64,000 nt of DNA from positions 1,856,001-1,920,000 of the forward strand of contig OY969474.1 in assembly GCA_963700145.1 (NCBI GenBank), read 5' to 3'. Shown piece after piece: positions 1 to 8,814 of this stretch. Source of the stretch: an uncultured Acidobacteriota bacterium. GTDB taxonomy: Bacteria; Acidobacteriota; Thermoanaerobaculia; Multivoradales; UBA5704. The notes below the pieces were generated by a model that had not been told where the DNA came from, did not search any database, and saw only the letters and a program-made list of their open reading frames with translations. Each line of letters begins with the position of its first letter. The stretch's first letter is position 1. The translations under genes and the position numbers were made by a program.

Positions 1-639
1 GGGCGGAGGCGCGGCGAGCGGCGCCGGCGCCGGCGCGACGATCGGCTCGACCGGCGGCCCGAAGGTCCGCGCCGCGAGGTCCGGCAGCGAGAGCGAGGCG
101 AGCGCCGGGTTGGAGACGACGGGAAGAGGGACGGCGGCTACTTCCACTTCCACGTCGCCGGCCTCTTCCACGTCGCCGGCCTCGCTCGCCTCGTCCGCGG
201 TGTCCAGCTCGCCGCTCTCGCTCTCCGCGACCGCCGCCGCAGCGCTCGTTTCCGCCTCCGGCCCCTGCTCGACGTCGAAGGGAATCCCCCCCTCGTGGAT
301 GTACTCGTCCACCATCTTGTAGATCAGCTCGCGGCTCCCCTTCGACAGCCGCAGGAAGCGGATCCCCATGCCCGCGGGCTTGGCGGCGCCCTGGTCGTCG
401 CTGCGGGTCCAGACGACCTCGCCGGTGCCCTTGATCAGCGGGTAGCCGTCGCCGAGCTGGAACTCGAAATCGAGGAGGGTCCCGACCGGCGAGGGGGCCT
501 GCGTCTTGACGAACAGGCCCCCCGGCGAGACGTTGGAGGAGTACTCGCTGATGAAGCCCGAGAAGCGCTCGAAGCGGAGCTGTACCCGCGTCTCGAGCGG
601 TACCCGGCGGGAGTCCCGCGAGGTGGCGTAATCCGTCAT
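1..639 (-). CDS. PilZ-domain protein (TIGR02266-like), 3' end runs out of the window
   Basis: Absent from the ORF track. Manual translation from ATG 639 gives MTDYATSRDSRRVPLETRVQLRFERFSGFISEYSSNVSPGGLFVKT...GEVVW...GMGIRF, with the RxxxR and N-x-S-x-x-G PilZ motifs, followed by an acidic Ala/Pro-rich linker. Confidence 0.85.
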   Translation of the reverse strand, partial: MTDYATSRDSRRVPLETRVQLRFERFSGFISEYSSNVSPGGLFVKTQAPSPVGTLLDFEFQLGDGYPLIKGTGEVVWTRSDDQGAAKPAGMGIRFLRLSKGSRELIYKMVDEYIHEGGIPFDVEQGPEAETSAAAAVAESESGELDTADEASEAGDVEEAGDVEVEVAAVPLPVVSNPALASLSLPDLAARTFGPPVEPIVAPAPAPLAAPPP

Positions 640-667
640 CAATGACTGCTCAATTGCAGGAGTGGAG

Positions 668-696
668 AGAGTAGTGCCCCGGACCGGGGCAGTCAA
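668..696 (-). promoter_or_regulatory. sigma70-type promoter for the PilZ gene, with a palindrome in the spacer
   Basis: Minus strand TTGACT(696-691)-N17-TACTCT(673-668). The inverted repeat TGCCCCGG-A-CCGGGGCA spans 675-691. Confidence 0.65.
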
Positions 697-717
697 CAAC
701 CGACGCGCCCGCCGGCG

Positions 718-1989
718 TCAGGTCGTGCGGCGGCGCTCGCGCTTCAGGAACTCGGCGAGGTGGCGGGCCAGCTCGAGGGTGAGGGTCTCCTCCTCGGCGG
801 CGTGCTGGAACATGAGGAGAGCGGCCATCGCCTCGCGGTGCACCTCGCGCGACTCGAAGACCGGCAGGAGCTCGGCGGCGAGCTGCTTGAGCTCGGCGGT
901 GCACCCCTCTTGGGCGTAGAGCATGGCGAGGTCGAGCGAGACGAGCGCCGCGTCGTAGCCCATGCCGCGTTCGAAGAACTCCTTCTGCACCTCGCGGAAC
1001 GACGCCTCCGCCGCGCCCAGCCGCCCGAGGCCGAAGGCGATGCGCCCTTCGGCCCAGGCGACGCGGACGAGGTCGAGAGGGTTGCGCTGGTCGAGCGCGA
1101 CGCGGCGCAGCTCGGGCAGCGCTTCTTCGGCCTCCCCGTGCTTGCCCGCGGCGATGAGCAATGCAACCAGATTCAGGTGGGAGCAGAAGATGAGACGCGG
1201 CTCGCGGAGCGGATCGAGCAGGGGGCTGGCCTCGTGCAGGAACGCGATCGCGGGCTCGAACTCTCCCTGCTCTTCCAGCACCGAGGCCTTGTTGATGAGG
1301 GACCTGCCGGCGCGGTGGAGGTCGCCCAGCTCGCGGAAGATGTCGATCGCTTGATCGAGCAGGGTCAACGCCTCGCCGAACCGCCGCTGGCCGCGCCGGA
1401 GCGACGCTTTCAGGTCGTAGACCTCGGCGCGCACCTTGAGATTGCCCGTCGTGCTCGTCGCCAGGAAAGTCTCGGAGCGCCGAAACGCCTCGTCGGCGCT
1501 CCACAGCTCCCCGAGCACCCGCCGAGCGTTGCCCAGATGAGCCCAGCACTTCGCTCGGAGGTCGGTGACCCAGTGCGGGTCGTAGGCTTCGCCGGGAAGG
1601 AGGTCGGCGATCCGGACGCCGAGCTCGGCGAACGAGACGGCTTCGGCCGGGTCGTCCAGGGCCGCCTCCAAGCTGCGCTTCAAGAGGAGCTGACAGAGCC
1701 CCCACGTCTGCAGCTCGCCGTCCTGGTCGATGCGCGCGAGCCGCTCCTCGAACGGCAGATCGGCTAGACGGGCGAGCTGCTCCGGGGCGCGCAGCCCTTC
1801 GTTGACCACAATCACTTCGTTCCAGTGCTCGACCTGCTCTTGGAGGCGCAGGATCTCCTCGCAGCGCTCGCGACAGGTAGGACAGTGGGCGAGGAAGTGA
1901 GGAATGACGTGTCGCTGGAGATCCTCGTACGGCAGCTCTCCGGAAAGCCAGCTCGCGAGCGCCTCCATCGACAGATGTTCATTCCTCAC
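718..1989 (-). CDS. Zinc-finger (HxxxCxxC, anti-sigma-like) plus TPR-repeat protein
   Basis: GTG start at 1989 after GGAGG. N-terminal EHLS..L..WL.GEL....HFLAHCPTC; helical TPR-like repeats follow (AHLGNARRVLG, ASLRRGQRRFGEAL, ASVLEEQGEFEPAI). Confidence 0.8.
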   Translation of the reverse strand: MRNEHLSMEALASWLSGELPYEDLQRHVIPHFLAHCPTCRERCEEILRLQEQVEHWNEVIVVNEGLRAPEQLARLADLPFEERLARIDQDGELQTWGLCQLLLKRSLEAALDDPAEAVSFAELGVRIADLLPGEAYDPHWVTDLRAKCWAHLGNARRVLGELWSADEAFRRSETFLATSTTGNLKVRAEVYDLKASLRRGQRRFGEALTLLDQAIDIFRELGDLHRAGRSLINKASVLEEQGEFEPAIAFLHEASPLLDPLREPRLIFCSHLNLVALLIAAGKHGEAEEALPELRRVALDQRNPLDLVRVAWAEGRIAFGLGRLGAAEASFREVQKEFFERGMGYDAALVSLDLAMLYAQEGCTAELKQLAAELLPVFESREVHREAMAALLMFQHAAEEETLTLELARHLAEFLKRERRRTT

Positions 1990-2078
1990 TCCGATGCCTC
2001 CTAGAGGTAACAGAGTCCGGGCAGCCGGTGCCCCTTCTAGATCATCTGTTTCCAAACTCGGCGATTTCGTGACAGGGA

Positions 2079-2294
2079 CTAGCCGTTCGGATCTCCCGCC
2101 AGCCCCTCCTGCTCCCAGATCCCCGCCAGACCCCTCCACACCCGCTCCACGGCCTCCAGCATCCAAGTACGGCCCGGGGCGGTGATCCGCCCTTCGTGGC
2201 GGTCCCGGCCGCGGCTCCAGGCGGCGGCGGGGACGGTGCCGAGGGCGGCGAGCAGGACGAGGGCGGCGAACGCCCGGTTCCATCTCCTAGACAT
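2079..2294 (-). CDS. Small secreted peptide precursor (71 aa) ending EGLAGDPNG
   Basis: GAAGGAGAG RBS before ATG 2294. Sec-type signal MSRRWNRAFAALVLLAALGTVPAAA, a Trp-rich amphipathic segment and a C-terminal GDPNG-stop. Confidence 0.7.
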   Translation of the reverse strand: MSRRWNRAFAALVLLAALGTVPAAAWSRGRDRHEGRITAPGRTWMLEAVERVWRGLAGIWEQEGLAGDPNG

Positions 2295-2500
2295 GGTCTC
2301 TCCTTCTTCCCGGGGCGGGTCCCTGGACGCTCTAGTGCGGCCCGGGCCAAGCCTCCAGAAACAAAGTTGACCCGTCCGGAACAAACGTGACATCGGAGGA
2401 GATAACTTTTCGCCCTTTTCGGCACCCCTTGGCCGCCATTTGGATCGCCGCCCGGCAGGCGCTGTGGTACAAAGGGCCGACTTTTTCGCCCGGAGGGACA

Positions 2501-3727
2501 ATGACGACCGCGCTGATGGAGACGACGAAGGCCCAGGAGCTGGTCGCGCTCGAGGAGCGCTACGGCGCCCACAACTACCACCCCCTGGACGTGGTGGTGG
2601 CGCGCGCCGAGGGCTGCTGGGTGTGGGACGTGGAAGGCCGCAAGTACCTCGACTTCCTGGCCGCCTACTCGGCGGTCAACCAGGGACATTGCCACCCGAA
2701 GATCGTCGCGGCGCTGGTCGAGCAGGCGCAGAAGGTGACGCTCACCTCGCGCGCCTTCCGCAACGACCAGCTCGGCCCCTTCTACAAGGAGCTGTGCGAG
2801 CTGGCCGGCTTCGCCAAGGCGCTGCCCATGAACAGCGGCGCCGAGGCGGTGGAGACGGCGATCAAGGCCGCCCGCAAGTGGGCTTACACGGTCAAGGGCG
2901 TGGCCGAGGGGCAGGCAGAGATCCTGGCCTTCGAGAACAACTTCCACGGCCGCACGACGACGATCGTCAGCTTCTCGACCGAGGAGCAGTACCGGCACGG
3001 CTTCGGACCCTTCACCCCCGGCTTCCGGGTGCTCCCCTACGGCGACGCCGAGGCGGTCGCCGCGGCGATGCACTCGAACGTGGCGGCGGTGCTGGTCGAG
3101 CCGATCCAGGGGGAGGCCGGGATCGTCGTCCCGCCGGCCGGCTTCCTGCGCCGCCTGCGCGAGATCACCCAGGAGCACCGGGCCCTCCTCATTGCCGACG
3201 AGATCCAGTCAGGACTCGGCCGCACCGGCCGGCTCTTCGCCTACGAGCACGAGGGGATCCGGCCGGACGTCGTCATCCTCGGCAAGGCGCTCTCCGGCGG
3301 GGCTTACCCGGTGTCGGCGATCCTCGCCGACGACGAGGTCATGGGGGTCTTCAGGCCCGGCGACCACGGCTCGACCTTCGGCGGCAACCCTTTGGCCGCC
3401 GCCATCGGGCGGGCCGCGATGCGGGTCCTGGTCGAGGAGCGGCTGGTCGAGAACTCGGCGGCGATGGGCCCCTACTTCCTCGAGCGGCTGCGGGCGATCC
3501 GCTCGCGCCACGTCAAGGAGGTGCGGGGCGTCGGCCTCTGGATCGGCGTCGAGCTCCACCGCGAGGCCGGCGGCGCCCGCCGCTTCTGCGAGGCCCTGCA
3601 GCAAGAGGGGCTCCTGTGCAAGGAGACCCACGACCACGTCATCCGCATCGCGCCGCCGCTGACGATCCAGAAGGACGAGATCGACTGGGCGGTGGAGCGG
3701 CTGGAACGGGTGCTGACGACGCTGTAA
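2501..3727 (+). CDS. rocD: Ornithine--oxo-acid aminotransferase (class III PLP)
   Basis: [62 protein letters not shown]; GGAGG RBS before ATG 2501. Confidence 0.95.
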
Positions 3728-4714: not shown

Positions 4715-6309
4715 ATGAAGTGCCCCGGCAGCGCCCCCGCCTCGCCACGCTCTCGCCGCGCGGCGTTGGCAGCGCTCGCCGCCCTGGCGCTCGCCTGCGC
4801 CGGTCCCGGCGGCGGCGAACCGCGGAACGAGACGGACCCGCCCCGCCCCTCCGGGACGCTGCGTGTCGCCCTCCGCGCCGCGCCCCGGACGCTCAACCCC
4901 AACACCTGGGACGAGGCCGCCGGCTCGGTCGGCCGCAACCTCTACAACCAGCTCGTCTCCCTCGACACCGACCTCCACCCGATCCCGGACCTCGCCCGCT
5001 CCTGGGAGGTCTCGGCGGACGGTCTCGCCTACACCTTCCACCTCGCGGAAGGGGTGACCTGGCACGACGGCCGCCCCTTCGGCTCCGGCGACGTCGCCTG
5101 GACCCTGCGCGCGCTGCGCTCCGAGAAGGCCTTCGCCGGCGACCTCGCGGCCCGCATCGCCGCGGTCGAGACCCCCGACGCCGCGACCGTCGTCGTCCGC
5201 CTCACCGAGCCCTGGGCGCCCTTCCTCACCACCCTCGCCTGGTATGGCACCTACATTCTGCCGCGCCATCTCCACGCCGGCGCCCCCTTCGGCGAGGCCG
5301 CCGCCGACCGCGCGCCCGTCGGCACCGGCCCCTTCCGCCTGGCGGCCTGGGAGCCGGAACGGATCGTGCTCGCCGCCAACCGGCGCTACTTCCGTCCGGG
5401 GCCGCACCTGGAGCGGCTGGTCTACCGCGTCCTCGCCGAGCCGGACGCGGCGTCGGCCGCCCCGGTCCTGCGCGGCGAGATCGACTACCTGGCGCTGCGG
5501 CCGCGGCCGGACCTGATGCAGGCGCTGCGGCGGGCGCCCGAGCTGGTCCTCGACAGCCGCCCGAGCGACGCCCGCTACTACGCCGGCTTCAACGTCCGGC
5601 GCCCGCCCTTCGGCGACCTGCGGGTGCGCCGCGCCGTCAACATGGCTCTCGACCGCGAGGCCCTCGTCGAGCGCGTGCTCGCCGGCTACGGCGCCCCGGC
5701 CTACGGCTTCTACACGCCGGCCGTCGCCTGGGCCTTCAACGAGCGGGCGCGGGCGCCGGCCTTCGACCCGGCGGCGGCCGCGGCGCTGCTCGACGCCGCC
5801 GGCCTGCGCCCGGGCGCGGACGGCGTCCGCTTCTCCGCCACGCTGGTCTGCCCCGACGCCGCGCCGTACACCGGCCTGGCGCGCGAGATGACGCGGCAGC
5901 TCGCGGCCGTCGGGATCGCGCTCGACGTCGAGGCGCTCACCGTCGACCGCTACCTCGACCGGCTCCTCGGCGGGCGCGACTTCGACCTCGGCCTCATGGG
6001 CGGCAGCCACGGCCCGGACCCCGCGAACCTGGAGATCCGCTTCGGCGCCCGCGGCAAGCAGCAGTTCATGGGCTACGCCGACCCGGCACTGGATCGGCTG
6101 CTGGCGCGCGGCGCCCGGCAGACCGACCCGGCGCTGCGCGCCCGCGCCTACGACCAGGCGCAGGCGCTCCTGGCGCAGACGCTGCCGATGGCGCCCCTCG
6201 CCGAGGCGGTGGGGTTCGTGGCCTACCGGCGCGGCCTGGCCGGGCTGCCCCAGGGCGACGCGCGCGGCCTCGTCGCCGGCGGCGACTTCAGCCTGGCACG
6301 GTGGCGGCG

Positions 6310-6313
<4 letters not shown>
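4715..6313 (+). CDS. ABC-type family-5 (DppA/OppA-like) solute-binding lipoprotein
   Basis: Lipobox LALAC; PDLARSWEVSADGLAYTFHL, WHDGRPF, PVGTGPFRL, PPFGDLRVRRAVNMALDR. Confidence 0.9.

Positions 6314-8814
<2,501 letters not shown>

Follow-up and report, generated by a model that had tools for sequence, protein, structure and literature searches.

Does a small exported peptide encoded beside a soluble regulator, in an uncultured bacterium of the Acidobacteriota (Thermoanaerobaculia, Multivoradales, UBA5704), act as the signal that this regulator senses? The question arose from a sequence-only reading of a 64,000-nucleotide stretch of contig OY969474.1 (assembly GCA_963700145.1, positions 1,856,001 to 1,920,000; the window), which pointed to a 71-aa open reading frame (ORF) with a strong ribosome-binding site, 89 bp upstream of a co-oriented 423-aa ORF with tetratricopeptide repeats (TPR). 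We confirmed both genes, their minus-strand coordinates and the 89-bp gap between them, the AAGGAG motif 5 nt before the ATG of the smaller gene, and the C-terminus EGLAGDPNG in its translation. Among orthologues of the TPR gene, a GTG or other start codon behind a GGAG-type motif recurs. This layout resembles RRNPP systems (Rap-Phr, NprR-NprX, PlcR-PapR, PrgX, Rgg-SHP, AimR-AimP), where the gene for a soluble TPR-type receptor adjoins that for a small exported pro-peptide with a conserved short C-terminal part. In our estimate, the balance stands roughly level on whether the two genes form a peptide-sensing regulator cassette that is analogous to RRNPP and has an anti-sigma-like output.

To examine the pairing, we searched the source genome, a single 5.46-Mb contig of 71.5% GC, with the TPR protein. 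The search returned 25 matches, 14 of which were full-length and carried H-x4-C-x2-C at 28–35 residues from the start. Twelve of these 14 adjoined a small ORF with a signal-like N-terminus, a helix that in most cases contains Trp, and the motif [ILVMG]-D-[PG]-x-G close to the C-terminus or right at it. A loose genome-wide filter blind to position, which required a signal-like start together with [ILVMFG]DPxG among the final 45 residues, was passed by 18 ORFs; 11 were no more than 2.5 kb away from a TPR gene of the family (10 genuine, 1 an antisense artefact), and the remaining 7, located elsewhere in the genome, looked spurious. At the orthologous loci, taken as the best match in each of 17 of the 18 same-family genomes, the peptide gene was upstream in every case (17/17). 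Of another 20 loci that we inspected, half came from one relative and half from six genomes of other families; a peptide gene was found at 14, 11 of them by the filter and 3 by inspection (one divergent, one with a sigma gene between, and one downstream); another 2 were ambiguous. These results show that peptide and TPR genes are paired far beyond chance. They also bear out the statement in the sequence-only reading that peptides ending in DPxG lie beside TPR genes in this lineage, and the flank check that it proposed found adjacent small signal-peptide ORFs with a DPxG end at most loci of the TPR homologues.

The TPR family was present in all 18 same-family genomes and in 10 of 12 genomes from other families of the order, with 10–58 matches per same-family genome (E ≤ 1e-10). 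In a sample of the phylum, 8 of 11 other genomes from the same class or order contained it at E ≤ 1e-25 (G053, among these 8, is flagged as unpublished). Of 139 genomes from elsewhere in the phylum, with only 11 candidates scored in each, none gave a match at that threshold. No peptide gene was found within the 1.5-kb flanks of members from other orders of the class (L068–L073). Named relatives all belonged to Thermoanaerobaculia or Acidobacteriota metagenome-assembled genomes, as did all 13 loci from a single-protein scan, and every carrier known so far is uncultured. In a library of 1.84 billion proteins, 1868 cluster representatives matched at E ≤ 1e-30, and the nearest Atlas clusters were Acidobacteriota labelled 'hypothetical' or 'TPR'. 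Seven paralogous cassettes (L035, L036, L037, L039, L040, L041, L044) lay inside a repeated multi-gene island. This island contained an XRE-type helix-turn-helix (HTH) gene convergent with the TPR gene and in several cases overlapping its 3' end, together with small Pterin_4a-like genes, a truncated paralogue of about 255 aa with its own H-x4-C-x2-C, and several conserved genes lacking a Pfam match. Another cassette (L043) adjoined an integrase and a Mutator-type transposase.

We then analysed the 71-aa product. Read by eye, its N-terminus showed the features of the signal peptide that had been assigned to it, with an n-region MSRRWNR, an h-region of 14 hydrophobic residues and a c-region PAAA followed by W. 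The proposed Trp-rich amphipathic helix was likewise upheld: the hydrophobic moment of residues 45–62 was 0.63, a value attained by 2 of 2000 shuffles, and the product has five Trp (positions 5, 26, 44, 53 and 60). Pfam and NCBIfam searches of the peptide returned no family. Fifteen orthologues from the protein collection were 52–97% identical to it, with a near-invariant signal peptide. Conservation of the DPxG end had been set beforehand as a condition, and D68, P69, N70 and G71 were invariant in all 15 orthologues and C-terminal in 13. The residues just before DPNG varied (LAG, TSL, VSP, SVL, SVT), and two orthologues carried the full unit EGLAGDPNG in duplicate behind a variable spacer. 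The pN/pS of the peptide gene was 0.17–0.37 (0.37 and 0.30 against the two closest orthologues), compared with 0.15 for the TPR gene; by this measure the peptide gene is under purifying selection. A chance ORF was ruled out because of the conservation, codon bias and pN/pS.

To compare precursors across the family, we tabulated 29 (12 paralogues and 17 orthologues), all found via the motif, so that its presence in them is by construction. At least two D[PG]xG matches occurred in 17/29; chance probably accounts for a few of these matches. The final Gly of the unit was the C-terminal residue in 13 precursors and lay within 3 residues of the end in 21, and cysteines bracketed the last unit in 6. 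Family peptides share a signal peptide and an amphipathic helix that contains Trp; close to the C-terminus, or right at it, they carry one to three near-identical G-x-x-[ILV]-D-P-x-G units. Within one precursor the units were near-identical and the spacers diverged. Taken with the conservation and pN/pS, this is what would be expected of a precursor in which a short repeated unit is the functional product, and the DPxG unit looks like its cargo. In 8 of the 29 precursors the n-region contained RR followed by any residue and two hydrophobic ones, loosely like twin-arginine signals.

The same features bear on two other explanations. The locus may hold only a regulator and its target, the small exported protein being the controlled product (for example a membrane-active or envelope-acting Trp-rich peptide) that a neighbouring regulator of the sigma/anti-sigma or HTH type turns on, with the TPR domain sensing something else. 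We regard this as unlikely. The strongly amphipathic Trp-containing helix speaks for it, amphipathic Trp helices being common to many membrane-active peptides, and the cysteine-bracketed units indicate a role outside the cytoplasm; however, the short DPxG unit, not the helix, is the most conserved part, and exact duplication of the unit amid drifting spacers fits the release of many short peptides better than a helical effector. Very unlikely, in our judgement, is that the repeated units are modified and released as the core peptides of a ribosomally synthesized and post-translationally modified peptide (RiPP), with the TPR protein as pathway scaffold or regulator. Some RiPP classes typically have multi-core precursors in which the repeats are near-identical and the spacers vary; the precursors here have such repeats and spacers, and cysteine pairs flank the units in some members. 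Against a RiPP, no gene for a modifying enzyme, protease or exporter recurred beside the 12 annotated loci of the source genome, a Sec-type signal peptide is unusual for a RiPP leader, and the neighbouring protein bears regulatory output domains, predicted to be anti-sigma-like or HTH.

The TPR repeats attributed to the 423-aa protein were recovered by Pfam, with TPR_12 at 47.3 bits (cut-off 30.1) and, below threshold, a TPR region like that of MalT (TPR_MalT). An AlphaFold2 model from 127 family sequences was all helical, with 22 helices (predicted local distance difference test, pLDDT, 94.2; predicted template-modelling score, pTM, 0.90). The stated length of this protein stood; its cytoplasmic location was drawn only from the all-helical soluble model and from a sequence in which neither a signal peptide nor a hydrophobic segment is visible. 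In Foldseek, the nearest solved folds were the TPR domains of LGN/Pins (E ~3e-6; TM 0.6–0.7 on target length), followed by Rap proteins of Bacillus and phages, some of them peptide-bound, a phage Rap included (E ~2e-5 to 1e-4), which places RRNPP receptors among the nearest solved folds. The best structural matches of the sensor region (PDB 4wnd, 3sf4, 3ro2) belong to LGN/Pins, a eukaryotic cell-polarity protein with 16–19% identity, and the likeness is one of fold only. The TPR domain of LGN/Pins binds extended peptides in the inner groove of its superhelix. The fold modelled for the sensor is compatible with the binding of a peptide.

When the 423-aa protein was co-folded with the mature chain of 45 residues, the median score was 0.41 (runs of 0.41, 0.05 and 0.64), compared with 0.00 for the best of three controls. 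The runs agreed in at least 33% of contacts, and the pLDDT of the partner was at least 42. Among 157 solved complexes, 116 attained the co-folding mark, as did 2 of 215 mismatched pairs; at scores of 0.60 or below, it was attained by only 18 of the 157 solved complexes and by both of the passing mismatches. Custom alignments were used, so these benchmark counts hold only roughly. The result gives weak support to binding of the peptide by the TPR protein. It came from the 45-residue chain, not from the 9-mer, and this would also suit a TPR protein that binds the DPxG units of the precursor before export, acting as a chaperone or as a sensor of feedback or secretion load, with no processing or re-import. 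Such sensing of the unexported precursor would remove any topology problem, because both partners start in the cytoplasm, and several units per precursor would raise avidity. On the other side, it does not readily account for the dozen or more diverged peptide/sensor pairs found in a genome, and the cysteine-bracketed loops and strongly conserved signal peptides suggest that the exported form matters. We consider it improbable.

To characterise the N-terminal domain, we compared its motif with that of zinc-binding anti-sigma (ZAS) factors. The sequence-only reading had named HxxxCxxC, the ZAS motif. The protein has H31-F-L-A-H-C36-P-T-C39, that is H-x4-C-x2-C, one residue longer, and the literal motif does not apply. 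In the family, 77 of 127 members had H-x4-C-x2-C, 30 the canonical H-x3-C-x2-C and 20 neither. Across 29 N-terminal sequences (95 residues), the only invariant columns were H5, H31, C36 and C39. An upstream His was present in 102 of 107 motif-bearing relatives, and H5 stands where the fourth ZAS ligand is expected, about 25 residues upstream. When the N-terminal profile was searched against the PDB, six sequences were found at E ≤ 10, and five of them were ZAS anti-sigma factors, with marginal E-values (DdvA 0.001 and 0.0047, RslA 0.012, ChrR 0.043 and 0.047). Modelled alone, the domain reached a pLDDT of 90.5, and Foldseek with this model returned nothing at E ≤ 0.001. Overall, the predicted domain shares with class I ZAS factors (ChrR/sigmaE of Rhodobacter sphaeroides, RslA/SigL of M. 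tuberculosis and DdvA/DdvS of Myxococcus xanthus) an N-terminal position, a helical make-up, an early His and a His...C-x2-C cluster about 26 residues on, and ChrR, RslA and DdvA are its best profile matches in the PDB.

Sigma genes were found in other cassettes. Locus L033 contained two tandem paralogous cassettes in the order peptide, extracytoplasmic function (ECF) sigma factor (Pfam Sigma70_r2 and r4_2) and TPR, in which the ends of the sigma genes overlapped the starts of the TPR genes by 8 and 20 nt. Such an overlap, directly upstream, is the usual arrangement of sigma and anti-sigma genes and suggests translational coupling. The source genome had four sigma genes of this subfamily: the two in L033, one divergent from a third cassette and one alone. 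The four lie at G000:C1 796772-797305, 799155-799682, 2755408-2755863 and 4071140-4071664. The peptide-sigma-TPR order also occurred in other families of the order (L047, L058, L067). The window cassette has no sigma gene beside it, and therefore any sigma factor held by its N-terminal domain would be encoded elsewhere.

In some relatives the output domain was exchanged. Pfam found no HTH in the 423-aa protein; 5 of the 20 motif-less relatives began with an XRE-type HTH_3 instead of the zinc domain. Two HTH-TPR sisters from related genomes, L081 (505 aa) and L089 (521 aa), were 42% and 39% identical to residues 66–417, and each adjoined a divergently oriented gene whose product has a signal peptide and three DPxG units; in L089 these units were cysteine-bracketed (C-x-I-D-P-Y-G-x-C). 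At L080, a DPxG-repeat peptide gene lay beside a 276-aa HTH_3 protein in which Pfam found no TPR. Within 1.5-kb flanks, a DPxG peptide gene was present at 3 of the 9 HTH loci inspected. The peptide neighbour is retained when the HTH replaces the zinc domain; therefore, the constant pair appears to be peptide and TPR sensor, with an output that is anti-sigma-like in some members and DNA-binding in others. A regulator that merely controls a target leaves unexplained why the TPR sensor is the constant neighbour whatever the output domain. Separately, at L049:1401-4083 and L052/L082 (G006) a ZAS-type TPR gene had an HTH-type TPR gene immediately behind it in the same orientation; at L052, a DPxG-repeat peptide gene was divergent from this pair. 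Library proteins P0028, P0029 and P0033 (about 1100 aa) had a mid-chain HTH, as if two such genes had been fused or read through.

Transcription signals were also inspected. By eye, a TGTCAC-N16-GnAAC element was seen ahead of the TPR gene in the window and in 17 orthologous cassettes (L014–L030), and a similar bipartite element ahead of the peptide gene in the window and aligned orthologues. Its first block, TGTCAC, is the -35 element given for ECF41 sigma factors in the part of Wecke et al. 2012 (PMC3426412) on which we draw. A similar promoter-like element before both genes fits a shared regulon and therefore favours the explanation by regulator and target, as does a terminator-like GC-rich hairpin with a T-rich tail, found directly 3' of the peptide gene in 11 of 18 orthologous cassettes (loci L017–L026, L029, L030). 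This hairpin was absent from the window and its three closest relatives, where the spacer is just 89–92 nt, and the 89-bp spacer folded no better than shuffles (z = 0.30). A genome-wide regular-expression search for the promoter-like motif revealed no enrichment over a reversed-genome control (strict form, 2 vs 2; loose form, 179 vs 187), and the two sites of the window do not match the strict form. A sigma-70 promoter and terminator scan of window positions 500–2600 found none of either.

Based on these observations, we propose that the 71-aa product would be exported via its signal peptide and that its C-terminal unit (EGLAGDPNG; in the family, G-x-x-[ILV]-D-P-x-G) would be freed as a short peptide. 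The TPR superhelix of the adjoining soluble protein would bind the freed peptide, and binding would alter the N-terminal zinc-binding, anti-sigma-like domain, which would most likely hold or release an ECF sigma factor encoded elsewhere in the genome. A broader proposal, which we offer tentatively and with some doubt, is that Thermoanaerobaculia run a dozen to several dozen orthogonal DPxG peptide channels per genome, in which peptides released from exported precursors, some as disulfide loops, are re-imported and each read by a cognate cytoplasmic TPR sensor. HTH forms of the sensor would act directly by binding DNA, and the others would use their zinc anti-sigma domains to act on a limited set of ECF sigma factors.

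Several results weigh against a peptide-sensing cassette with an anti-sigma-like output. One concerns topology: the peptide would be exported, whereas the TPR protein has neither signal peptide nor membrane segment, and no importer gene recurred beside the 12 annotated loci of the source genome. The cysteine-bracketed last units suggest a disulfide loop acting outside the cytoplasm. Adjacency would also be expected if the regulator merely controlled the peptide gene, and it is incomplete, since two paralogues (G000:C1 3645931 and 4275305) had no detectable peptide gene beside them and 4 of the 20 further loci had none. One of the three co-folding runs gave only 0.05, and the likeness of the model to Rap and LGN is generic for TPR superhelices. 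On the output side, the motif spacing differs from the H-x3-C-x2-C of ZAS factors, and Pfam zf-HC2 (PF13490) gave no match at E ≤ 1 for the 423-aa protein. In a Pfam scan of 48 chosen members of the 127-sequence alignment, 2 of 21 zinc-motif relatives had sub-threshold zf-HC2 matches (17.2 and 19.2 bits; cut-off 22.2) and none passed. A wide structure search with the N-terminal domain (VIA) listed anti-sigma domains in 8 of 50 rows, with no row above Z 4.8 and all matches weak (MucA 4.5, RsiW 4.3, PupR 3.9, RseA 3.6, RskA 3.5, RslA 3.4, DdvA 3.0, ChrR 2.9). Finally, the window cassette, like most others, has no sigma gene beside it. Of the case for the anti-sigma-like output suggested in the sequence-only reading, the invariant His and Cys, the ZAS profile matches, the coupled ECF genes in two paralogous cassettes and the HTH swaps remain in favour, and the literal motif was lost.

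Like RRNPP, the family has many diverged pairs per genome, and its sister proteins share the HTH and TPR build of PlcR, NprR and AimR. In contrast, the host belongs to a diderm Acidobacteriota lineage, whereas RRNPP systems belong to Bacillota and phages; the output domain is predicted to be zinc-binding and anti-sigma-like, not an HTH or a Rap-type helix bundle; and the peptides carry a fixed DPxG end, often in two or three copies and sometimes cysteine-bracketed. By sequence, the 423-aa protein matched no RRNPP receptor family, with generic TPR families only in Pfam and weak unrelated matches only in NCBIfam. The RRNPP-analogous module proposed for a diderm thus kept the conserved peptide/TPR pairing and the TPR fold, but neither an RRNPP sequence-family match nor an HTH in this protein. 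The cassette would work like RRNPP without being a member, because the sequence-family match is lacking, the output domain differs and the host is diderm. By a term search, 'sigma factor' and 'anti-sigma' were absent from an RRNPP survey (PMC10075063), and 'Gram-negative' occurred in its reference list only.

Compared with ZAS factors, the 423-aa protein is predicted to be fully soluble, and a TPR sensor of about 350 residues replaces the membrane anchor or cupin. In the sections of Casas-Pastor et al. 2021 (PMC7826278) used here, soluble anti-sigma factors are predicted in 10 ECF groups, with further soluble variants possible, and TPR are mentioned for two groups only, ECF42 (C-terminal TPR extension) and ECF267 (TPR-bearing putative anti-sigma factor). 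As described there, both couple a TPR module to ECF sigma control, as would the present cassette; unlike it, their TPR form part of the sigma factor itself or of a membrane protein resembling FecR, and those sections describe no paired exported peptide.

Diderm bacteria are thought to depend mainly on small-molecule signals. To our knowledge, RRNPP-type cytoplasmic receptors of peptide pheromones occur only in Bacillota and mobile elements, and our literature search found no description of a DPxG peptide/TPR cassette system. If the proposal of orthogonal peptide channels were true, RRNPP-type peptide quorum sensing would be seen for the first time in a diderm phylum, and also for the first time with an anti-sigma factor under the control of peptide binding. 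Peptide signalling through intracellular receptors would then have arisen independently or be far older than assumed, soluble anti-sigma factors would gain a defined class of ligand, and uncultured soil Acidobacteria would be a source of many peptide-sensor pairs that are orthogonal by nature. This is a large family, and its members bear only the database labels 'hypothetical' or 'TPR'.

Table 1. Positions of the two genes, their domains and their candidate expression signals in the window
Feature	Position	Strand	Remarks
Promoter-like bipartite element upstream of peptide gene	2365..2392	-	TGTCAC, 16 nt, TCAACT; by eye, from aligned orthologue upstream regions
Shine-Dalgarno of peptide gene	2300..2305	-	AAGGAG, 5 nt ahead of ATG
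Pre-pro-peptide gene	2079..2294	-	71 aa + stop; ATG at 2294, stop 2079-2081; positive codon-model score
Signal-peptide-like N-terminus	2220..2294	-	Residues 1-25; by-eye features; near-invariant in 15 orthologues
Amphipathic Trp-containing helix	2109..2162	-	Residues 45-62; hydrophobic moment 0.63
C-terminal unit EGLAGDPNG, candidate mature peptide	2082..2108	-	Residues 63-71; conservation in 15 orthologues
Promoter-like bipartite element in 89-bp spacer, upstream of TPR gene	2047..2074	-	TGTCAC, 16 nt, GAAACA; by eye
Shine-Dalgarno of TPR gene	1997..2002	-	AGGAGG, 7 nt ahead of GTG start
Zinc-finger/TPR regulator gene	718..1989	-	423 aa + stop; GTG start at 1989
N-terminal ZAS-like domain	1825..1989	-	Residues 1-55; candidate zinc ligands H5, H31, C36, C39; invariant columns and profile matches
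Sensor region with TPR superhelix	730..1794	-	Residues 66-420; Pfam TPR_12 and TPR_MalT; Foldseek

The surroundings of the cassette were also recorded. On the same strand, 78 bp past the TPR gene, lies a gene for a PilZ-domain protein, followed by genes for an N-acetylmuramoyl-L-alanine amidase and an MreB/MamK-like actin (window 1-639 and leftwards; L034:5696-9240, minus strand). A PilZ gene was found 3' of the TPR gene at 7 of the 17 orthologous loci. A second peptide and TPR cassette (G000:C1:1851417-1853068, plus strand) faces this PilZ/amidase/actin operon, so that the two cassettes bracket it. On the other side, 2.5 kb from the cassette, an ORF at window 4766-6313 (plus strand) resembles by eye an SBP_bac_5-like periplasmic peptide-binding protein (ATP-binding cassette family 5), and it overlaps the start of a hybrid histidine kinase ORF (6301-8814, plus strand).

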